A DNA stretch of 64,000 nucleotides from a virus (lineage: Duplodnaviria; Caudoviricetes): positions 64,001 through 128,000 of IMG/VR virus record IMGVR_UViG_3300033074_000233. The stretch is one strand, 5' to 3'. The notes under the pieces were generated by a model. The model was not told the DNA's origin. It worked only from the letters and a program-made list of their open reading frames with translations, and did not search any database. This document shows positions 4,493-58,546 of this stretch, in pieces. A program made the translations under genes and the position numbers. How positions within the stretch are numbered: the stretch's first letter is position 1; each line of letters opens with the position of its first letter.

Positions 4493-5578
4493 TTAGATAC
4501 GACGCGCCTTGGCTACCGAGCGGGAGTTGGCAATGACCATCGAGATCAGCTCGGTCATCCACCAGCCCTTACCAGGAACCTGTTCAATCGAACCATCAAT
4601 CGGGGTGCTGGAAACGCCACCACGATCAGTGTAGATACCGTGGTTAACGGAATCCGAGATGATGAACATTTCGCCCTGGTTCAGGACTTTGTGCTGCGGG
4701 TGACGGAACGCGTCGGTGTAAACGGTCATGCCCAGGATCGTACCCAGTTGACCAGTCAGCAACAGTTCGTGCTTGCTAACCGGGTCGATGATGGCAGCGA
4801 ACTGCGCGTCACCAACAATGTCGCCCCAGATATCGGTAGCGATCAGGTAAGACGAGGCAGCCAGGTTCCAGCGGGTTACCAGAGTCTTGAGCGCAACAAG
4901 TGCGGACGGGTTCATCGTGCCCACGATAGTCGTGAACTCGTTGGACACGCCAACAGTGTTGGTAGCAAGACGGTACCACAGACGGTCTTCTGCAACCATC
5001 ACACCTTCTTGGGCTTCTACGAACTTCTCTTCCAGAACATCACCAACAGACTGCTGGATTTCACGCTCCTCGATGAACGGACGAGCGTTGATGTAAAACT
5101 CCGGCGGGAAGTACATATTGTCACGGACGATCTGCGAGAACGTCTTGGTCGGTGCACCAGCAACGGTTGCAACACCGTTCTTGAGGCGCATCTTGACGTA
5201 CGGACGCTGACCTTGCGACAGTTCCTGGCGAGCCAGGAAGCGACGCATGAAACCTTCACGGTTCGCAGCGATGTACAGTTCGTCGGCCAGGGTAGCACCG
5301 AGTTCCTTGTGGGCATCGCCGCTGTTGAAGGCAGCAGTCAGCATTTGCTGGTGAACCTTAGCCTTCTCTTGACGACGCTCGGCTTCGGTTTCGGTGATGA
5401 CGGACGAGGTCTCAGCGGCAGCCAGCAAACGAGTGATCTGGCCAAGCAGATCCTTGTTGCTGTTCGCGTTGACTTCGCCATTGCGACCAATGGCGCGGGA
5501 TTCACCCTTGCCTAGGCGCAGTTCAGTTGCAACTACCGGCTGTTTGAACGAAACGCCAGTCATGTTCGGCTTTTTCAT
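4493..5578 (-). CDS. Major capsid protein (HK97 fold)
   Basis: 361 aa; pattern EDRLW...GQLGTILGMTVYTD...GWWMTELISMVIANSRSV; follows scaffold and decoration genes; high-expression codon bias; GGAG RBS. Confidence 0.85.
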   Translation of the reverse strand: MKKPNMTGVSFKQPVVATELRLGKGESRAIGRNGEVNANSNKDLLGQITRLLAAAETSSVITETEAERRQEKAKVHQQMLTAAFNSGDAHKELGATLADELYIAANREGFMRRFLARQELSQGQRPYVKMRLKNGVATVAGAPTKTFSQIVRDNMYFPPEFYINARPFIEEREIQQSVGDVLEEKFVEAQEGVMVAEDRLWYRLATNTVGVSNEFTTIVGTMNPSALVALKTLVTRWNLAASSYLIATDIWGDIVGDAQFAAIIDPVSKHELLLTGQLGTILGMTVYTDAFRHPQHKVLNQGEMFIISDSVNHGIYTDRGGVSSTPIDGSIEQVPGKGWWMTELISMVIANSRSVAKARRI

Positions 5579-27430: not shown

Positions 27431-28313
27431 AGTCAGTGACCTTATCAAGTCGGAGAAAGCACCGACTGATAAAACTGGTATGTATATGTCACTCTCTTTG
27501 CCATCAAGAGTCAACCTCAAGAACGTAGCCCGTTCCTTACAGGTTGACGCTGAGGAAATGCGTGAAACCATTAACACCTGGAAACAGGACTCAGCCGTCC
27601 TTAACCAGTTGTGTGAGGTTCTTTCCGACGCCGTTATTCGAGTCGATGGCAATGGCCTAATATTTGAGTTCAACGAAGCGGCATGCGCGTTGTTTCATTC
27701 CACTCCAGCCTATATGCTTGGAAAGAATATCTCGGTCATTCTATATACGGACTGGACATCTTTCCTAGATAACTTCGACGATCACCAATCGTTCGAGCAC
27801 ATGATTACAAGGTTAGACGGTTCTTCGCTGCTGGTTTCTACAGCCTTAACCCGTGTTGGTAGTAATGACGGAGAATACATACTGGTTATTCGTGACATTA
27901 CCCAGCGTGTTAAATCCGAGCAGGATATTCTGATACTGTCGGCCGCATTAAATCAGGCTTCCGACGTTATCATCATTACCAATAGCCTTAACAAAATAAT
28001 CTTCGTCAACAATGCCTTTGTAAAGCACACGGGCTATACAGAACAAGAGGCTATAGGTCAAGACCCAAAGTTCCTGAAGTCAGGTGAGACCCCACGCATT
28101 ACTTATGATGCCATGTGGGGTCTTTTGCGTGAGAAGCGCACTTGGGAAGGTGTAGTGATAAACAAGTGCAAGGACGGTAGGTTAGTTGAGGACTACATGA
28201 TTGTGACTCCTGTCATGAACGGTGATCCAGTAAGACCAGCCTTCTACATTTCCGTTAAGCGGACAGAGTGGTGCAAACCGTATGAAACAGATCAAAGTAA
28301 CCTCAAGGGTTGA
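27417..28313 (+). CDS. Tandem PAS-PAS sensor protein without output domain
   Basis: PAS1 DAVIRVDGNGLIFEFNEAACALF...RLDGS...IRDITQR; PAS2 IIFVNNAFVKHTGY...IGQDPKFLKSG...W....WEG..INKCKDG...TPV. Confidence 0.9.
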   Translation: MARLKVSDLIKSEKAPTDKTGMYMSLSLPSRVNLKNVARSLQVDAEEMRETINTWKQDSAVLNQLCEVLSDAVIRVDGNGLIFEFNEAACALFHSTPAYMLGKNISVILYTDWTSFLDNFDDHQSFEHMITRLDGSSLLVSTALTRVGSNDGEYILVIRDITQRVKSEQDILILSAALNQASDVIIITNSLNKIIFVNNAFVKHTGYTEQEAIGQDPKFLKSGETPRITYDAMWGLLREKRTWEGVVINKCKDGRLVEDYMIVTPVMNGDPVRPAFYISVKRTEWCKPYETDQSNLKG

Positions 28314-44494: not shown

Positions 44495-45547
44495 ATGAAC
44501 ATTAAGCGTCCGTTCCTCATGTACGTCGGCAACACCTCAGTTCTAGTAGAAATCAAAACGGCTGCTGGTGTTATTGAGTGGTGTCCAGAAGACGTTGTTG
44601 GTGTGTACACAACAGGTCCTGACGCGCTTACGTTTGGTAAGCCTGTTATCAATGACTTCAATGCCGCAGTGGCTGCTGGCGCCAAGACCTTTGTGGTTGG
44701 CTCTTCACCTACGAGTGGTATGATCGACGACTCGTGGATTCAGATGTTCTTCAATGCAATGGACGCTGGTCTGGACATTGCCTGTGGTCTACATGAAAAA
44801 CTCAACGACATTTCCTTCTTGGTAGACTATGCTAGAAAGGCAGGCGTAGTTATGCACGACTTCCGTCACCGTGAGGACGTGTACCCGAAAGGCACAGGCA
44901 TGAAGCGCCCTGGTATGCGTCTACTCACGGTAGGTACGGACTGTGCTTGCGGTAAGAAGTTCACTGCCATATCCATTGCGCGTGAGTGCAAGAAGCGTGG
45001 GCTTGCAGCCGACTTCCGTAGTACAGGACAAACTGGCTACCTGATTTCGTCTAGCGGCATTAACAACGACACGATTCCTGCTGACTTCCTTTCGGGTGCT
45101 GCTGAGTGGCTGTCGCCTGCGAACGCACCTGATCACTGGGATGTTATCGAGGGGCAAGGCGCTCTTTTTCATCCAGCCTATGCTGGAGGCAGTCTGTCCC
45201 TGCTTATGGGCAGTCAGCCCGACCTCATCGTTCTCTGCCATGATCCTGCGCGTGAGAAAGTACGTGGCCCAAAAGGCATGGACTTCAAGTTGATGTCCCT
45301 GGAAGAGGAGATCGAAGGCAATCTCCTCATGGGTAGTCGCACTAATCCAAAGATTCGACTTGGTGCTATCTCCATAAACGGTCGCTACGCTTTTCCTGAG
45401 GGCAATACGACTGCTTATCTGGATTACAAGAATGGGTTGATGGAACGCTTCGGCGTTCCTGTGTTTGACCCCCTTGTAGATGGCGTGTCATCCATAGTTG
45501 ACGTTATGGAATGTAAGAGCATGACGGTAAACAATGAAAAAGCCTAA
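44495..45547 (+). CDS. DUF1611 / DgcN-family P-loop protein
   Basis: GTDCACGKKFT, TGQTG, DFLSGAAE, IEGQGALFHPAY. Confidence 0.9.
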   Translation: MNIKRPFLMYVGNTSVLVEIKTAAGVIEWCPEDVVGVYTTGPDALTFGKPVINDFNAAVAAGAKTFVVGSSPTSGMIDDSWIQMFFNAMDAGLDIACGLHEKLNDISFLVDYARKAGVVMHDFRHREDVYPKGTGMKRPGMRLLTVGTDCACGKKFTAISIARECKKRGLAADFRSTGQTGYLISSSGINNDTIPADFLSGAAEWLSPANAPDHWDVIEGQGALFHPAYAGGSLSLLMGSQPDLIVLCHDPAREKVRGPKGMDFKLMSLEEEIEGNLLMGSRTNPKIRLGAISINGRYAFPEGNTTAYLDYKNGLMERFGVPVFDPLVDGVSSIVDVMECKSMTVNNEKA

Positions 45548-49042: not shown

Positions 49043-50050
49043 ATGGCGCGCATTTATCGCCACTCACACCTAATGGCCAAACTGAAGGCCATCGACGAAC
49101 AGATACAGGACAACTATTCAAGCGCGCAGTATGTGGAAGTCTGGGATACCCTACTCTACAATGCGCTTGAACCAATAGTGACCTGTACCAAAGTAGCCGA
49201 TCTAATTCTCGCGGACGTTCTCCACTTCTACGTGGAGAATCATCGCCGCAAACTTTCCTCGCTTCCAAAAGACCTAGTAATGTCTTCTTTGGTTCGCTTT
49301 CTCATAGCAGAACCCAAGGACAGACTTAAACGCCTGCGTAAGTGCAGGCTGGAGCGCAATGTACTACGCCTAATCATTACAACCTTTCTGGATTCGTCTG
49401 AGGAGTATCGAGCACTCACCCTAAAGAAGATTCACACTAAAGAGGGCACAGCCCATCAAGCCCACATAGATCATAGTCTGTCACACATAGAGACACGCCT
49501 AGGATACAATGGACGCTTGGACTTGTTCTCCGCTATGAGCACGGTAGTGTTCTGGCACGATCAGGCCAATAAGTTCAAGAATATGCTCATGGAAAAGTAC
49601 CTGCGCCTTATCGTGACTCAGGCTCAGATGTACTACAAGTCCAACAACTCAAACATGGACTTGGACGATATTATCCAAAACCTAATCGTATTCACCTCGA
49701 AGGCTTTGGATAAGTACGACGTTCGCAAGGGAACGATAGTCAGTTACATACAGACTTGGTTGCAACACGCCAAGAATGTAACCGTAGTTCAGGAGGATGG
49801 AATAGCATTCCTGCTACCAGTTGCCAAGCGCAGCGAAGTGGCGAATATGTCAGTAGCGATTGATAATGAGGAGGTACTGGAAGTAGAGTATGAGTGCGGA
49901 GAAAACGTGGAACTAGAGTCCACGCGACGCCGTGTTCAATTACTCGCCAAGTTGGTAGACCCTACAGGACTTGGTCGTTTGTCGTTAGGAATTTCGGAGG
50001 TATTAAGTCGGGAAGAATTGGCATTACAGCGCAGACACGCCGTAGGTTGA
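49043..50050 (+). CDS. Phage sigma70-family factor
   Basis: Region 2: YLRLIV..A..Y...DLDDIIQ......KALDKYD..KG..SY...W. Confidence 0.75.
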   Translation: MARIYRHSHLMAKLKAIDEQIQDNYSSAQYVEVWDTLLYNALEPIVTCTKVADLILADVLHFYVENHRRKLSSLPKDLVMSSLVRFLIAEPKDRLKRLRKCRLERNVLRLIITTFLDSSEEYRALTLKKIHTKEGTAHQAHIDHSLSHIETRLGYNGRLDLFSAMSTVVFWHDQANKFKNMLMEKYLRLIVTQAQMYYKSNNSNMDLDDIIQNLIVFTSKALDKYDVRKGTIVSYIQTWLQHAKNVTVVQEDGIAFLLPVAKRSEVANMSVAIDNEEVLEVEYECGENVELESTRRRVQLLAKLVDPTGLGRLSLGISEVLSREELALQRRHAVG

Positions 50051-50098
50051 TTCTGTAAATTGAGTTCGCTTCACTTCACACCCATCTGGGAGATTGTT

Positions 50099-51613
50099 AT
50101 GACACGCGCAAAGTTCAATACGAAAAAGACGTTTCAAGATTCCAAACCGCGCACAGGCGGTGATGACAACAAGAAACTGGAAGATTTGGTAGACACTATC
50201 AAAATGCCAGAGAAGGAATACGTTTCGATGCGCCTTATTGGCCCAGCGATTCCGTATGCACAACACTGGATCGAGTTCCACTCGTCCAAAGGCAAGGACG
50301 TAAACATCCCGAAAATCTGTCTTGCGTTCGATCCTGATACGGAAGACTTTGATTCGTCCAAGAAGTGCCCGTATTGCGACAACGGCAACAAGGCTAGCGT
50401 AGCCTACCTGACCAACGCAATCATTCGTGATATTCAGGAGAATGAGCCTGCTAAGAAAGGCAAGATGACTGACAGTGAGAAGAAGACTGGCTTCAAGGAG
50501 AAATCCTCGAAGACTTGGACCCCTGTCAAAGTCGTGCGTATCACTTCGACGGTTGCGAGCAAGTTCCAGAACCTGTCCAACGCCAACAAGGTCAAGGACA
50601 AGAAGTCTGGCGAGACTGTTGCCAAGCCTCTCTCGGACGAGAAGTACGGTCGTGATATCCAGATGCTGTACGATTCCAAGGCAGCAGGCTCGGCCAAGTA
50701 CGACGTACAGAAGGGCGATGAGCGTACTCCTCTGACCGAAGAGGAGAGTGAATACCTTGTATGGAATATCGAAGGTCTGTTCGAGCCAGAAGACCTGTCG
50801 CGCGCCAAGCAAGAGGCTGCCAAGTTCTTCGGCAAAGGCGGCAAGAAAGGCGAAGACGCTGACTACGACGAAGAAGATGACACGCCAAAAGGCAAGAAAG
50901 GCAAGAAGGCGAAAGATGAGTACCTAGATAGCGATGAGGACGACGAGCCGAAAGCCAAGAAGGGCAAAAAGAGTAAGAAGCCTGTCGATAGCGACGAGGA
51001 CGATGCGGACTCGGACGATGACGCGGCTGATTCTGACGACGATGCAGATTCGGATGAAGACGAACCGAAGTCCAAGAAGAAGCCTGCGAAGAAAGGTAAG
51101 CCCGGCCTGAGCGCGAAAGATTCGGACGACGACGGTTTCAGCGATGAAGACGACGCTGATGACGAAGACGAAGACTCGGACGAAGACGAACCGAAGAGCA
51201 AGAAAGGCAAGAAGCCTGCAGCCAAGAAGGGTAAGAAAGCAGCAGACTCGGACGAAGACGAAGACGAAGACTCCGATGAAGACGCTGATGATTCGGATGA
51301 GGATGAAGACTCTGATGAAGATGAGCCGAAGTCCAAGAAGAAACCTGCGAAGAAAGGCAAGAAGGCCGCTGACTCTGACGAAGATGAAGATGAAGACTCC
51401 GATGAGGATGATCCCAGGGCAAAGAAAGGCAAGAAGCCAGCAAAGAAGGGTAAAAAGGCCGCTGACTCTGATGAGGACGACGTAGACCTCGACGATCTCG
51501 ATGAAGACGAAGAAGAGGACGAGCCGAAGTTCAAGAAAGGCAAGAAGGACAAGAAAGCCAAAGGTAAAAAGTCCAAGAAGGACGAAGACTCGGACGACGA
51601 TGTGCCTTTTTGA
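50099..51613 (+). CDS. Single-stranded DNA-binding protein (gp32-like) with very long D/E-K tail
   Basis: HWIEF, ICL, CPYC, YLTNAII, GRDI; tail ends DDDVPF. Confidence 0.75.
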   Translation: MTRAKFNTKKTFQDSKPRTGGDDNKKLEDLVDTIKMPEKEYVSMRLIGPAIPYAQHWIEFHSSKGKDVNIPKICLAFDPDTEDFDSSKKCPYCDNGNKASVAYLTNAIIRDIQENEPAKKGKMTDSEKKTGFKEKSSKTWTPVKVVRITSTVASKFQNLSNANKVKDKKSGETVAKPLSDEKYGRDIQMLYDSKAAGSAKYDVQKGDERTPLTEEESEYLVWNIEGLFEPEDLSRAKQEAAKFFGKGGKKGEDADYDEEDDTPKGKKGKKAKDEYLDSDEDDEPKAKKGKKSKKPVDSDEDDADSDDDAADSDDDADSDEDEPKSKKKPAKKGKPGLSAKDSDDDGFSDEDDADDEDEDSDEDEPKSKKGKKPAAKKGKKAADSDEDEDEDSDEDADDSDEDEDSDEDEPKSKKKPAKKGKKAADSDEDEDEDSDEDDPRAKKGKKPAKKGKKAADSDEDDVDLDDLDEDEEEDEPKFKKGKKDKKAKGKKSKKDEDSDDDVPF

Positions 51614-52029
51614 TAATCCTTAAGGGTAAAGAAAAGTGGCGTAAAGTTCCATCTATGCCTAATTTGGAAGCCTCTAATTACGGTAGGATTCGTGTTATTC
51701 CCTACCAGAAACAGATGCCGAATGGTGGCCTTAGGTGGTACGGAGGATTTCCTACTAAAGGACAGTGGGGAGGCTCTCGGTATATTTACGTCATAAAGCA
51801 GCACACCTACAAAGTAGCGCGCTTAGTGTGCGAAGCCTTCAATGGAAAGAGTCCGAAAGGCTATGTGTGTATGCACTTGGACGAGAACGTGAGAAACAAT
51901 AAGCCTAGTAACCTGCGCTGGGGAACTCAAAAAGAGAACCTCAATGCTCCTGGGTTTATTGCGTATTGCAAGTCTCGAACAGGCGAGAATAGCCCTCTTA
52001 TAAAGGGAATGCGAAAGCGTAATAAGTAG
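51610..52029 (+). mobile_element. NUMOD4-HNH homing endonuclease
   Basis: EKWRKVP...EASNYGRIR, VARLV.EAF, HLDEN..NN...NLRWGT..EN. Confidence 0.85.
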
Positions 52030-52095: not shown

Positions 52096-54699
52096 ATGGC
52101 AATTAAGAAAGGTAAGGACGTAAAAGAGAAGAAGGTCAAGAAGACCAAGGAAAAGCCAGAGAAGAAAGGCAAGAAGGCGAAAGCCGAGAAAGAACCCAAG
52201 GTCAAGAAAGGCAAGAAAGGCCGAGTGATTGATGGTGACACTGGCGAGGTCCTGGATGACGATGACGGCATTGCGCTTCGTGCTCACGCTGCGTCCGAAG
52301 ACATGGATGCGATGCTTGACGCAATCGAGAAGGACGTTGGTATTGTTGCCGTTACCGCAGGTAGTCGTAACACAACCAGCACTGGCCTGCTTTCGCTTGA
52401 CCTGATGCTTTGTGGTGGCCTTGTCTCTGGTGGCTGGTATACCTTCTTCGGCGGTGAGCAATCGTCTAAGTCCACGCTGGCGATGACACAGATCGCACGT
52501 GCGGCTATGCAAGGCAAGATTCCGATCCTGTTGTACTTCGACTTCGAGGGTTCACTCTCCGAGTCGCTGGACTACATGCTGAGTATTGCACGGGCACAAG
52601 GTTTCAAGGGTAACTTGCAAGACCTCTTTGGCATTCAAGACCCGAAGACGGGCAAGTACGTCAAGAAGCCGTTGATTCGTCGGTATCAGGAAAGCGTTGC
52701 CGAGCGTTTCTTCGACCTCGTTGCCAAGCTGGAGCGTAGTCTGCCGGACAAACTCTATCGCAACGAAAAGTGGTGGTACGTTTACGAACATACCAAGGTC
52801 AATATCTCCAAGTACAGCGCCATCTCGGATAAGCAGTTGTACAAGCAGACTGGCAAACTCTGGGTTGAGACTGACAACGGCCACCCACAGGCTATGATAG
52901 TGGTTGACTCCTATCCGGCAATGCTTCCAGAGCGTCTGGATGAGGATGATGCTGGTGCGGGTATGGCTGCACAGGCCCGTATGTTCTCGGACAACATTAA
53001 GCGCGTCAAAGGCAAAATGTCGTCCAAGCGCATTGTAATCATGGGCGTGAACCAGTTGCGTAAAGCACCTATGGTTAAGTACGGCTGTCTACACGGAGAT
53101 ACCCAGATTCCGTTCGTAGATGGTACGTCGCACAGCATTAAGTCTATCGTGGAGCAAAAGATTGAAGGTGAGGTCTGGTCTCTAAACGAGGACACGGACA
53201 AGATAGAGCCTGCAAAGATTACAGGCTGGTTTAACAACGGAGAGGTAGACAAAAAATCGGACTGGATTACGATTACTACCACTAACGTAGTAGAGACACC
53301 CAATGGTGTTGCCTCTGTTACGGTTACGCCTGACCACAAAATCCTTACCCGACGTGGATGGAAAGCCGCGCGTAAGTTGAAAGTTGGCGATAAAGTCCTG
53401 AGTAAGTACGCATCTATCTACGAGGGAGAAATGCGCTCGGTGCTTGCTGGTGTCCTAGCTGGGGACTCTTGTATTGTTGGTGATTGCAGGAATAGTCACC
53501 TTAGACTTCAAGACTCGCAGAATGCCGAGTACGTTGCTTGGAAGCGCGACCTGTTGAAGGACGTTCTATCCTTCAACTTGCGCGGAACTAAGAAGCAAAC
53601 TTGGATTTCCAACAGGTATTACCAGTTGTCCAAGTTGAAAGAAAAACTCGGAGAGCGTGACCCAACTAAGTTCGCTAACGTGTTTGATGCCCGCAGCCTT
53701 GCTATTTTCTACATGGATGACGGTCATTTCAGGTCTGAGAGGAACACAAGTAGTATTTGTATCGGTCGTTTTAAAGGTAAAGAAAAACTTGAGCAGGTAG
53801 CAGAAATGTTGTCTGAAAAGTTCTGTGTGTCTCCAGTAGTTCGCGGCAAAAACCTTATGTTTTCTGCCGAGGATACGCGAGTTATGCACAGTCTAATTGC
53901 CAAGTATGTGCCAGAGCCTATGCAGTACAAACTTCTTCCTGAGTACAGGGGCAAGTATAAGGCGCATAAACTCAAGGCAAAAATCTCTACCAAGAACATC
54001 TGGTGTGAGATAAGTTCCATAGACAAAGGCTCAGACAGGAAGTTCAGGTCTAGGACGAAATACGACATTGAAGTGGCTAGCCATAGTAACTATATGGCGG
54101 GTAACGTAGCCAACGGATTCATTGTCCATAATTCGCCGGAATATGAGCCCGGAGGGGAGGCTGTCAAGTTCTTCTCGGACGTTCGTATCCGTATGGCCTC
54201 GCGTTCAGTTCTGGGTGGCACAGGTCAGATCGAGGAAGAACCGTCAGTAGAGAAACCGGGTGGCAAGGACGTGTACCGTTACGTCAACATGCGCGCAGCC
54301 AAGAACAAGTTGTCTGTACCGAACCTTGAAGGCTGGGCCCGTATCTGGGTGCGTGATGCCTACGGTAAAGCGCGTGGCTACGATCCGGTGTTCGATACCT
54401 TCACCTTCCTCAAGGAACTGAAACTGATTTCGGGTACCAAGAAAAACCTCGTTATCAAGTTGAAGGAGTTTGAAGGCAGCAAAGGCCTGACGTGGGCACA
54501 GTTCAAGATGCTGTGCATTGGCGAAAAGAAAATGGTGTTGCAGGTATTCAAGGACGCCAAGATCAAAGCCAAGCCGTTCAAACTGCGTGAGCGCCTGTTC
54601 AAGATGGTGTCTACGGGTAAGGCGACTGAGACCTACTTTGCTGCGCTTGCTGATGGCAGTGGCAAAGACAAGGACGATGAGGCACCGAGCGATGAATGA
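52096..54699 (+). CDS. recA: RecA/UvsX-like recombinase with intein
   Basis: STGLLSLD..L.GG, GGEQSSKST, DFEG, VVDS, QARMFS, NQLR, PGGEAVKFFSDVR, KNK. Confidence 0.92.
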   Translation: MAIKKGKDVKEKKVKKTKEKPEKKGKKAKAEKEPKVKKGKKGRVIDGDTGEVLDDDDGIALRAHAASEDMDAMLDAIEKDVGIVAVTAGSRNTTSTGLLSLDLMLCGGLVSGGWYTFFGGEQSSKSTLAMTQIARAAMQGKIPILLYFDFEGSLSESLDYMLSIARAQGFKGNLQDLFGIQDPKTGKYVKKPLIRRYQESVAERFFDLVAKLERSLPDKLYRNEKWWYVYEHTKVNISKYSAISDKQLYKQTGKLWVETDNGHPQAMIVVDSYPAMLPERLDEDDAGAGMAAQARMFSDNIKRVKGKMSSKRIVIMGVNQLRKAPMVKYGCLHGDTQIPFVDGTSHSIKSIVEQKIEGEVWSLNEDTDKIEPAKITGWFNNGEVDKKSDWITITTTNVVETPNGVASVTVTPDHKILTRRGWKAARKLKVGDKVLSKYASIYEGEMRSVLAGVLAGDSCIVGDCRNSHLRLQDSQNAEYVAWKRDLLKDVLSFNLRGTKKQTWISNRYYQLSKLKEKLGERDPTKFANVFDARSLAIFYMDDGHFRSERNTSSICIGRFKGKEKLEQVAEMLSEKFCVSPVVRGKNLMFSAEDTRVMHSLIAKYVPEPMQYKLLPEYRGKYKAHKLKAKISTKNIWCEISSIDKGSDRKFRSRTKYDIEVASHSNYMAGNVANGFIVHNSPEYEPGGEAVKFFSDVRIRMASRSVLGGTGQIEEEPSVEKPGGKDVYRYVNMRAAKNKLSVPNLEGWARIWVRDAYGKARGYDPVFDTFTFLKELKLISGTKKNLVIKLKEFEGSKGLTWAQFKMLCIGEKKMVLQVFKDAKIKAKPFKLRERLFKMVSTGKATETYFAALADGSGKDKDDEAPSDE
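53086..54132 (+). mobile_element. Intein with LAGLIDADG endonuclease (349 aa) in RecA loop L2
   Basis: KYG|CLHGDT...TPDH...IVHN|SPE; LAGVLAGD, FYMDDG. Confidence 0.92.
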
Positions 54700-55051
54700 C
54701 CTACCGGGAAACACCTACGCAGGTGTGATTGAGCCATTTACGCCTGCGGTTTTTGAGCACTTTCGTACTGAGCATTTCCTCAAGCACAACCTTGCTGTCG
54801 ATAGGATTACGGTGTCTCCCAATGTAGTCGTCTACCTTAAGACAAGCCACCACTGGCCCACGCTCATCGACTTTGCCAACAACTTGAGAGAGATTGAGCG
54901 TGGTCAAAAGGGCCGTCTTCTTGGAATGGAACTCTATGAGGACACGGAACTAAAGACCATAGAAGGCCTTGGTATCCTGAAGATGCAAAACTGGCGCATG
55001 GACAGAACGCTGACAATAGCAATCATGCAAGGAGTAGAACGCAATGACTGA
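54692..55051 (+). CDS. Stand-alone major-capsid-protein fragment (A-domain-like)
   Basis: NLA...ID...GQKGRLLGMELYED aligns with MCP NLA...ID...GQLGTILGMTVYTD. Confidence 0.65.
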   Translation: MNDLPGNTYAGVIEPFTPAVFEHFRTEHFLKHNLAVDRITVSPNVVVYLKTSHHWPTLIDFANNLREIERGQKGRLLGMELYEDTELKTIEGLGILKMQNWRMDRTLTIAIMQGVERND

Positions 55052-55388
55052 TCCCATAAGTTCATTGTTGCAGAAGCAGCGGAAGTTGGAACACTACCAA
55101 GTTTCAACTCACCTCCATATGATGTGGGCCATCGTAGCACAGGATACGTTAGCGGAGCCTTCGGATTCCACAACCCGTACTCTGCACGTTGCCCGCTTCA
55201 ATGAAATCCTTACGGGCTACAAGATGGCTCGCGCTTTGGGGGACTTCAAGGTTGTTTGCGACGATTCCAACAACACACCTGAGTACATTGACTCCAAGAA
55301 CTACTGTAAAGTGGATATATGGATTCAGTGGGACAAGTCGTCGGCGAACATGGAACACTTTGAGTTTCCGCCTGAAGGGTTTAGATAA
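55044..55388 (+). CDS. Stand-alone tail-sheath C-terminal domain
   Basis: EPSDSTTR...DFKVVCDDSNNTPEYID...VDIWI; AAGGAG RBS. Confidence 0.75.
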   Translation: MTDPISSLLQKQRKLEHYQVSTHLHMMWAIVAQDTLAEPSDSTTRTLHVARFNEILTGYKMARALGDFKVVCDDSNNTPEYIDSKNYCKVDIWIQWDKSSANMEHFEFPPEGFR

Positions 55389-55400
55389 CAGGAGTAGGTA

Positions 55401-56429
55401 ATGGCCCTCGATTTTCTCGCGGTTGGAGACCTACACACAGACAAACTATCCAACTTGTTCCCCGAAAATCACTTGCAACTGCAGGCGTTTGAATGGGACA
55501 AGGTTTGTCAGTATGCCATTAGGGAGAGCATCACAACGCTCATTTTCCTTGGTGACATATGCGAGAATGCAAGAATGACCAGCGACGCCGAAGAGGTGTT
55601 CGCTCGGTTTCTGGCTAAGTGGGACGGCAAGTTGAACCTGTACTTCATATTGGGTAATCACGATTGGGACGAGGTTGGTGTTCACAGCCTTCGTCCCTTC
55701 GTGACCAACTATGAACTGGGCTACTACAAAACCGTTCACATCATTGCAAAACCTGAGGTAAGGAAGATCGACGGCGTGAAGGTAAACTTCCAGCCGTACC
55801 CGGGTACAACTTCATACCGCGACCATGTCAACATAGGTCACTTCCAAGTGAGTGGCTCTACGAATGACAATGGTCGTAAGGTAAAGAAAGCACATGAGGT
55901 TGTCAAGGGGCACCTATGGATTATGGGTCATCTGCACACGCCACACAGCGTCGGCGACGTGCATTATCCAGGTACGTTATATCAGTTGAACTTCGGCGAA
56001 TCCTTGCCGAAAGGATTTATGCGCGTCCAAGCAAAAATGAAAGATGGACGTTTGAGGTACAAGACGGATCGTCTAAAGAACGAGCCGAGATTCAAGTTGT
56101 TCAACCTGAAGGTCGAGTCCAAGAGAGACCTGAAGGCGATTGATCCGAACCCTCTGTACAAGTACAAGGTGTTCCTCCAGTCAGACTACGCGCCTCCAGA
56201 AGATATGCTGGAGCGTTGGCCAAACATAGTAAAAGTTGAAGGCTTCAAGACTACGGAGGAATATGAGGCTGCTGTCCAAGAGGCCTTCATCGAGATAAGC
56301 AAGCAGACGTTACAACTGCCACCAATGGAAAAGATGCTGACCAAGTTTCTTAGGCGCAGAGGTTTCACGCCGGAACAGGTCAAGCGTGGAAGGCAACTAC
56401 TAGAAAAGGTTACGCCAAGAGCCAAATGA
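55401..56429 (+). CDS. Mre11/SbcD-like nuclease
   Basis: GDLH, LGD, GNHD, GH, GHLH, YPG. Confidence 0.9.
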   Translation: MALDFLAVGDLHTDKLSNLFPENHLQLQAFEWDKVCQYAIRESITTLIFLGDICENARMTSDAEEVFARFLAKWDGKLNLYFILGNHDWDEVGVHSLRPFVTNYELGYYKTVHIIAKPEVRKIDGVKVNFQPYPGTTSYRDHVNIGHFQVSGSTNDNGRKVKKAHEVVKGHLWIMGHLHTPHSVGDVHYPGTLYQLNFGESLPKGFMRVQAKMKDGRLRYKTDRLKNEPRFKLFNLKVESKRDLKAIDPNPLYKYKVFLQSDYAPPEDMLERWPNIVKVEGFKTTEEYEAAVQEAFIEISKQTLQLPPMEKMLTKFLRRRGFTPEQVKRGRQLLEKVTPRAK

Positions 56430-56974
56430 ATAGCCAAGTATTAGGGCACCGGGTGTATGCCGCAGAAGCCCGGGCTCATTTAACAACCGAGACAGAAAAG
56501 AAGTTGCTGACTGTGATTGACGCAGTAACCGCGTCCAAGCAGGCTCTGTGTGATTACTTACGCGCTAATCCAGAAGCAACGATGCGCGCGGCCAATGCCT
56601 TTATTTCAGGTGAGTGCTCGGCTATCTCCGCCGTGAACGACCACTTCGTTATTGGCATTCCGATGAACTCATTTAGATTCACACTTCGGGCTGCCGCCTA
56701 TCACTACTTCAACACGATTGTTCCTGAGGTAGCGCACGTACCTTTTAGATGCGGAGCGTTCCAAAGATTCATTAGAGAGCACGAGGAAGTTTTGCTAGTG
56801 TTCCCTGAGGTTAACGGTCTGGACCTAACTGTAGGCGACCTGAAGTTTTCTGTAAATAGACTGAATGCGACGCCAACTTTCGTCCAGTTTGTTCTAAAGG
56901 ACCTGAGTAGCGTCCGTCTATTTTATACGCTGGAAAAGTCCAGCATAGCCCGTCTATCGGAGTATGTATCATGA
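56426..56974 (+). CDS. Hypothetical protein
   Basis: ATGA overlaps at both ends. Confidence 0.6.
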   Translation: MNSQVLGHRVYAAEARAHLTTETEKKLLTVIDAVTASKQALCDYLRANPEATMRAANAFISGECSAISAVNDHFVIGIPMNSFRFTLRAAAYHYFNTIVPEVAHVPFRCGAFQRFIREHEEVLLVFPEVNGLDLTVGDLKFSVNRLNATPTFVQFVLKDLSSVRLFYTLEKSSIARLSEYVS

Positions 56975-58126: not shown

Positions 58127-58546
58127 ATGGAAATGCAACCGCCAGATGTTCCAGTTCAGGAAGAGCCTGTAGACTCAGGTAACGACACAGCTCTTAACGA
58201 GCACCTGCACAAAATGGAAATTGCCCATAGTGGCATGATGATCGGGTGCGATAAAGCAGACAATCCACCTTATCAGCAAGGTTATGTAAAAGGCTACGGC
58301 GATGCCCTGAAAAGCATGAAGGAGTTCTCTGATAACTGTGGAACTACGCCCGCGTCCGAGGCTGTCCACATTCTTATCGCAGCCCTGAGAGCAGACCCGG
58401 ACTGGGCCTGGTCTTACCACTGCAACATTGCAATGGCGTTCCAAGATGAGGGTGGCGACTACAAAACTGCCAACCGTGCCGCAGCCCGCTTTATGAAAAA
58501 CTGGGCCGATGTAGATACAACGAAGTCTCCGCACTACTTTGAGTAA
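58127..58546 (+). CDS. Phage hypothetical protein (HCNIAM motif)
   Basis: DPDWAWSYHCNIAMAFQDEG...AAARFM; AGGAG RBS. Confidence 0.65.
   Translation: MEMQPPDVPVQEEPVDSGNDTALNEHLHKMEIAHSGMMIGCDKADNPPYQQGYVKGYGDALKSMKEFSDNCGTTPASEAVHILIAALRADPDWAWSYHCNIAMAFQDEGGDYKTANRAAARFMKNWADVDTTKSPHYFE

Follow-up and report, generated by a model that had tools for sequence, protein, structure and literature searches.

Free capsid A-domain and sheath domain IV genes in the recombination operon of a jumbo phage, candidate decoys for sensors of virion proteins

Here, we analyzed a stretch of 64,000 nucleotides (nt) (hereafter the window; bases 64001-128000 of the 215,992-base IMG/VR record IMGVR_UViG_3300033074_000233), which comes from an RSL1/Motura/PaBG-like jumbo phage (giant bacterial virus), and found that its recombination operon carries two small genes for single virion-protein domains. 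The first open reading frame (ORF A; 119 amino acids, aa) was confirmed to encode a free HK97 capsid A (axial) domain, and the second (ORF B; 114 aa) encodes a free domain IV of a contractile tail sheath. Both are folded domains separated from the parts required for polymerisation, kept by selection, and gained, lost, duplicated or swapped at fixed operon slots. The pair was confirmed as real, and phage genes for free A-domains or free sheath domains IV were not described in the literature searched, a search that did not cover most subscription papers. As the best-fitting explanation, with a rough probability of 45%, we suggest that these proteins might be decoys that bind sensors of virion proteins without activating them.

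A preliminary description of this region had placed two intact ORFs between recA and mre11, and both were indeed found there on the plus strand (Table 1). The order of the operon is sigma-like factor, SSB, HNH, intein-bearing recA, ORF A, ORF B, mre11, a 182-aa gene, clamp loader, a 139-aa gene and rad50. The start of ORF A overlaps the stop of recA by 8 nt and the start of ORF B overlaps the stop of ORF A by 8 nt, with the Shine-Dalgarno site of ORF B lying inside the end of ORF A. In all same-lineage relatives showing that junction, the end of recA and the beginning of the cassette gene likewise overlap. The two ORFs are ~49 kb away from the head operon, and the real sheath-tube gene pair is also located elsewhere.

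A free capsid A-domain encoded by ORF A

The capsid assignment had initially been based on an almost gapless alignment of ORF A with the major capsid protein (MCP) of this phage. Such an alignment exists (16 of 79 positions, 20%, identical to MCP residues 213-290, with one gap; pairwise E 5e-4), but on its own it is insignificant across all ORFs of the genome (phmmer E 0.84). Searches of Pfam, PHROG and PDB sequences and by tblastn gave no useful match for ORF A. Four close (80-97% identity) and five distant (22-38%) homologues were found, all of which are 117-128 aa long. In HHalign, the 10-member ORF A family matched the A-domain of the clade MCPs with a probability of 90% (E 1.9e-6), whereas the values for the controls were <1% (tube and sheath) and 0.2% (MCP residues 1-207).

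Structural similarity to the HK97 A-domain, which the preliminary description had named as a check, was also found. The AlphaFold2 model built with nine homologues had a predicted local distance difference test (pLDDT) score of 85 and a predicted template modelling (pTM) score of 0.78, compared with a pLDDT of 46 when just five close sequences were used. Among 48,161 solved chains compared with this model by VIA-align, the lambda capsid protein ranked first (Z 9.8, root-mean-square deviation 3.7, 105 residues), while HK97-fold shells made up 49 of the 50 best matches listed, the remaining one being the stand-alone protein PF0899. Template modelling (TM) scores of 0.73-0.74 were obtained in the Atlas structure comparison, and Foldseek against the PDB gave no match at E <= 0.001, its best-ranked rows being capsids. 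Since the profile and structure evidence is added to the weak pairwise match, the homology of ORF A to capsid proteins is considered firm.

ORF A has the A-domain fold of HK97-fold MCPs (lambda 7sj5, LME-1 9eg4, phrog_2522) together with their motif conserved around MCP residues 262-290. It differs from them in being an accessory and swapped protein of 119 aa that has lost the N-arm, E-loop, spine helix and P-domain, and its model comprises the A-domain alone. The structural alignment extends as far as the C-terminal end of several capsid proteins, so that a short turn may have taken the place of the P-domain excursion. When the P-domain hairpin was removed from the MCP profile, the alignment of ORF A extended to the last strand (100 columns), although the score was not higher. 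Because the N-arm, E-loop and P-domain are gone, ORF A presumably cannot build a shell. It also lies outside the head operon and is not a core gene, being missing from the recA-mre11 slot of two relatives (contigs of relatives are designated by L numbers; here L001 and L005).

A free sheath domain IV encoded by ORF B

The T4 gp18-type sheath signature that had been noticed in the second, overlapping gene was verified by PHROG tail-sheath matches (phrog_10581, E 3e-9; phrog_23, E 7e-9). ORF B also matches T4-type sheaths in the PDB as well as the sheath C-terminal domain clusters of the Atlas (TM 0.79), and it is 29% identical to residues 754-845 of the 876-aa sheath of the same phage. Like domain IV of gp18-type sheaths (PF17482, phrog_23), it retains two helices and the VVCDxxNNTP hairpin (VVCDxSNNTP in ORF B). 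In contrast to these sheaths, domains I-III and the N-arm are missing, the C-terminal arm is shortened and a Trp replaces the conserved sheath Pro.

The gp25/TssE proteins have the same fold as sheath domain IV, and ORF B is of gp25-like size. This similarity is one point in favor of a role in the phage's own morphogenesis (see below). However, ORF B showed no match to gp25 or PF04965 and is not in the baseplate module, and the genome has a separate gp25 gene in its tail module; ORF B is thus not the gp25 initiator itself. As their defining parts are missing, ORFs A and B are not members of the capsid, sheath or gp25 families.

The best matches of ORF B are cyanophage sheaths (38-43% local identity, compared with 29% to its own sheath). 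One alternative is that the two proteins poison or cap assembly in a dominant-negative manner, the targets being tailocins, type VI secretion systems, satellites or phages that co-infect or superinfect: a free A-domain would join capsomers, whereas a free domain IV would take the handshake arms of the sheath and terminate the polymer. In support of this, both fragments keep the domains of subunit contact without the remainder, and ORF B scored 58.6 bits against the profile of T4-like and other sheaths but 40.8 bits against that of its own clade, although the former score is biased because that profile was built from the best matches of ORF B itself. The sheath tree, which has long branches, leaves the donor (T4-like or own clade) undecided, and the B allele of the relative L012 shows no preference for T4-like sheaths. 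In addition, the altered C-terminal arm would argue against normal handshaking. Overall, a poison appears somewhat unlikely; if it were one, the locus would represent a weapon of a lytic phage against competitors.

The Atlas also contains several clusters of viral sheath-domain proteins that are 108-148 aa long, some of which may be contig-edge pieces. This was the case for one further candidate (P0011), which resembled a free sheath domain but was rejected as part of a normal sheath gene cut off at the edge of its contig.

Selection and allele replacement

Both ORFs are under purifying selection, with a ratio of non-synonymous to synonymous substitutions (dN/dS, Nei-Gojobori) of about 0.2 (A 0.08-0.37 and B 0.09-0.30; close recA and mre11 pairs 0.04-0.07). 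No stops or frameshifts were observed in 10 A and six B homologues, the lengths of which are constant (112-128 aa). The preliminary description had proposed neutral decay in relatives as evidence against function, and such decay is excluded by dN/dS values well below 1. The possibility that these genes are neutral debris of old duplications, for which low identity to the parents might speak, is also opposed by the confident fold and translational coupling, and is very improbable.

Within the recA-mre11-rad50 operon, ORFs A and B make up a cassette that is gained and lost. Both follow recA in the window, L003 and L012/L013, while the slot contains B and a 128-aa gene in L001 and L002, B alone in L005, and A, a 147-aa gene and B in L009. 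A second A paralogue precedes rad50 in one relative, and all A homologues whose context was examined are inside the recombination operon. The 128-aa (L001:10513-10899) and 147-aa (L009:760-1203) genes sharing the slot, which gave no convincing family matches, are candidates for further anti-defence genes.

The sister phages L015 and L155 have mre11 genes that are 100% identical and downstream genes that are 97% identical, but A genes with 30% identity, and DNA homology breaks and resumes at the ends of the A gene. Such a sharp drop between near-identical neighbours indicates allele replacement. Similarly, the window and L012 share 39% (A) and 35% (B) identity, as compared with 90% for recA and 71% for mre11. 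In the sister lineage, A is located after mre11, and the recA-mre11 slot is occupied by the anti-Thoeris gene tad3 (three sister contigs). The tad3 gene of the genome studied here lies outside the recombination operon. Immediately upstream of it is a 157-aa gene, a homologue of which is placed likewise in L015 and L155; the idea that this tad3-adjacent gene (157/176 aa) is a tail-tube mimic was unsupported (HHalign 0.7%).

These data also bear on a role in the phage's own morphogenesis, whether as a minor component of the virion, as a chaperone of its assembly or as a gp25-like initiator of the sheath. Paralogues of virion proteins with other roles are known: T4 gp24 is a second copy of the capsid gene with an altered role, and SaPIbov5 Ccm is a capsid paralogue that interferes with helper phage assembly. 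Both, however, retain almost the complete HK97 fold and are built into shells, whereas ORFs A and B are single domains. Two sheaths have also been described for PaBG (PMC7412058). On the other hand, the absence of A from some slots, the lack of detected B-type genes in RSL1, BCSR5, Aura and PhiXhv-15, the distance from the head operon and the lack of a virion-type motif upstream are not expected for such a role, and a structural partner would hardly be exchanged for another allele in operons that are otherwise nearly the same. None of these proteins was among the 14 virion bands of PaBG, in a gel that would miss small proteins. We therefore regard a morphogenetic role as rather improbable.

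Free virion domains in the clade

To look at the distribution of such genes, ten genomes were searched with profiles seeded solely on true capsids or sheaths (best reversed-sequence control, E 0.4-3.6). The MCP of the phage studied is 44-48% identical to those of phages GR7B, BCSR5, BcepSauron, RSL1, Motura and PhiXhv, and 37-41% identical to those of PaBG, Lu11 and the P. putida Aura group. Free or near-free sheath domains were detected in Motura (QDH83656.1), AD1, GR7B, PaBG and Lu11. The last has two such genes just upstream of mre11: Lu11_0114 (L099:8412-8912), in which the sheath hairpin is fused to an HTH_37 domain, and, weakly, Lu11_0112. A clear free A-domain was found in Motura (QDH83390.1, 116 aa, E 3e-11; equated with A0A514CSE5 by matching length) and weaker ones in AD1 and GR7B, while Lu11_0105 (JQ768459.1 77477-78340) is a tandem double A-domain core. 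The A-family profile gave no match in five cultured genomes, whereas iterated capsid- and sheath-seeded profiles did; with the latter profiles, no free domains were detected in RSL1, BCSR5, Aura and PhiXhv-15.

The genome under study itself has a second stand-alone sheath domain IV gene (184 aa, with a central insertion; HHalign 93%), look-alikes of which occur in PaBG (27524-28084) and, weakly, as Lu11_0112. Furthermore, a degenerate MCP paralogue of 307 aa (E 8e-11) is present in a region of small genes. Similar genes for proteins of 284-314 aa, which retain mainly the A-domain motif, lie downstream of A in L015, L155 and L156. The two Motura products are hypothetical proteins encoded at loci other than this operon, and small hypothetical proteins resembling A- or sheath domains were also found at other loci of phages Y3 (A0A2H4IBH4 and A0A2H4IAS8), PaBG (S5VZG9) and Noxifer (A0A1Y0SV83), the A-like rows being weak Foldseek matches (E 0.006-0.08). 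Noxifer and Phabio (A0A1Y0SYJ5), phiKZ-like Pseudomonas jumbo phages outside the clade, also appear to have A-domain-like proteins of ~138 aa, as judged from weak BFVD matches. Free virion domains are a clade-wide habit, and in annotation a small 'capsid' or 'sheath' match need not reflect a broken gene or a faulty assembly.

The Motura free A-domain matches capsids of its own clade exclusively and is therefore considered to be self-derived. For an assembly poison this would carry a risk of self-harm. Allele swapping would also fit phage-phage conflict.

Another explanation is that these domains were exapted as binding modules unrelated to the surfaces of their parents, for example in host take-over or in titrating a host factor or chaperone that binds capsid or sheath. 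The deep divergence from the parents (about 20-29%) and the reuse of the cores in fusions (Lu11_0114, Lu11_0105 and the 284-314-aa proteins) are consistent with it, as is the existence of a cellular stand-alone protein with an A-domain-like fold, PF0899 of Pyrococcus furiosus (2pk8; Z 6.5 over 76 residues), which is uncharacterised, has 12% identity and shows no evidence of kinship with the ORF A family. However, the same motifs are kept repeatedly and the tandem pairing persists across 35-39% divergence, which suggests that likeness to the virion is itself selected. Exaptation of this kind is, in our opinion, unlikely.

Promoter-like motifs

Two motifs were enriched before genes, CTAATTT and CTGTAAAT. 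The former precedes the head and tail operons and does not occur in the recombination operon, while the latter precedes SSB, a primase-like gene, one split DNA polymerase gene and the clamp loader, and has the same core as the annotated putative middle/late promoter of Lu11. They are candidates for two phage promoter classes, one for virion operons and one for replication genes. As CTGTAAAT lies upstream and CTAATTT is missing from the operon, ORFs A and B are likely to be expressed alongside replication genes, judging from these motifs. A scan for sigma-70 promoters was near background. A sigma-like factor is encoded in the same operon.

Possible decoys for sensors of virion proteins

The idea that the two genes encode immune decoys came from the preliminary description and is still a proposal, although it fits the data best. 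In the proposed mechanism, single domains of virion proteins would have been copied to give accessory conflict genes, the products of which would appear with the replication proteins and ahead of the build-up of real capsid and sheath monomers. ORF A would then occupy Avs7/8/10-type STAND NTPases or similar sensors without triggering them, ORF B would do the same with a putative sheath sensor, and the real monomers would evade detection. Swapping of alleles would follow the sensors of different hosts.

Support for decoys comes from binding of the A-domain by Avs7/8/10 (PMC13581612), swapped alleles, and the presence of tad3 in the sister operon. In addition, the free A-domain of Motura, with its matches confined to capsids of this clade, would be a copy of the clade's own trigger. 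ORF A thus resembles a known trigger surface, and both genes are accessory and fast-changing and lie near anti-defence genes, the proximity of tad3 being confined to the sister lineage. Activation of Avs7 involves two lobes that clamp around the A-domain, P-domain and E-loop, so that an A-only ligand could bind without clamping. A mutant capsid has been reported to bind the Thoeris sensor ThsB1 without activation, the binding requiring the E-loop (PMC12578639), which is missing from ORF A.

Two of the capsid sensors that had been mentioned initially call for a correction. The Gol peptide of Lit is in the N-terminal part of gp23, which is missing from ORF A. CapRel contacts loops of the A-domain but binds mainly the P-domain (PMC9712102).

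The closest known parallel might be DSAD1 of SPbeta, a small phage protein that blocks DSR2 and is proposed to fill its tail-tube pocket without activation (PMC10973363); ORFs A and B may work in a similar manner. In the portion of that report available to us, DSAD1 is described as a mimic and not as a cut-out tube domain, and its target and activity are proven, whereas those of ORFs A and B are hypothetical.

Several observations weigh against decoys. Isolated core folds often suffice to activate Avs sensors, so that a free A-domain could itself be a trigger. With ~20% identity to its own MCP, ORF A is distant for a faithful decoy. Fast change is not specific to A and B, because the non-structural 182-aa neighbour shares just 42% identity with the corresponding gene of L012. 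Being related to one another, the three tad3 contigs count as approximately one event. Finally, no sheath sensor was found in the literature searched; Lee et al. (2026) named the tail sheath as a possible target, none having been found so far.

Because a phage cannot do without its capsid and tail proteins, sensors directed at them are expected to be difficult to evade. If the decoy hypothesis is true, non-essential copies of the domain being sensed would offer a general bypass built from the trigger itself, and ORF B could serve as bait for sheath sensors, the question left by Lee et al. (2026). More broadly, and at somewhat less than even odds, jumbo phages may duplicate recognisable virion domains of their own, trim them into decoys and trade these as allelic cassettes; free A-domains would then be a general anti-Avs or anti-capsid-sensor family, and free sheath domain IV genes would point to undiscovered sheath sensors. 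The locus is distinctive in its tandem pair, exact allele swap, tad3 neighbourhood and homologues in cultured phages. It is also tractable, considering that the proteins have 110-130 aa, homologues are available in Motura, Lu11, AD1, GR7B and PaBG, and panels of Avs7/8/10 have been published.

Other features of the region

Table 1. Positions of the genes and motifs discussed (window coordinates unless genome or contig is indicated; G000, the genome studied)
Feature	Position	Strand	Evidence or remark
Major capsid protein	4493..5578	-	phrog_2522, E 1e-78; residues 213-290 (4709-4942) homologous to ORF A
Sigma-like factor	49043-50050	+
CTGTAAAT, promoter-like	50053..50060	+	before SSB; nearest one upstream of ORFs A/B; motif match alone
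Further CTGTAAAT	40792, 56850
CTAATTT	7962, 3640, 25625, 34733
NUMOD4-HNH gene	51610-52029
recA/uvsX-like gene with intein	52096..54699	+
ORF A, free HK97-fold capsid A-domain	54692..55051	+	profile alignment, AlphaFold2 model, structure comparison
Shine-Dalgarno site of ORF B	55029..55034	+	AAGGAG, 9 nt before ATG
ORF B, free contractile-sheath domain IV	55044..55388	+	PHROG, PDB and Atlas matches
mre11/sbcD-like nuclease	55401..56429	+	right edge of variable slot; phrog_100, E 1e-28
182-aa gene	56426-56974	+
139-aa gene	58127-58546	+
gp25 gene, tail module	genome, about 44515-44892		beyond window; PF04965, E 6e-15 (44632-44820)
Tail tube gene	genome, 54976-55479		beyond window; paired with sheath
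Full sheath gene, 876 aa	genome, 55495-58125		beyond window
184-aa sheath domain IV gene	G000 155454-156008 (L019:7454-8008)	+
157-aa gene	G000 159773-160246 (L019:11773-12246)
tad3	G000 160224-160811 (L019:12224-12811)		outside recombination operon; PF25185, E 7e-33
307-aa MCP paralogue	G000 195881-196804 (L006:3882-4805)	+

Additional variation was noted among the neighbouring genes. The recA intein is of the LAGLIDADG type and is missing from L004 and the L155/L156 lineage, and the NUMOD4-HNH gene is missing from L001. In L156 (7562-10384), an intein and two antisense ORFs interrupt the clamp-loader gene. The 139-aa gene has a conserved C-terminal module, which in L015 has moved to the recA slot.

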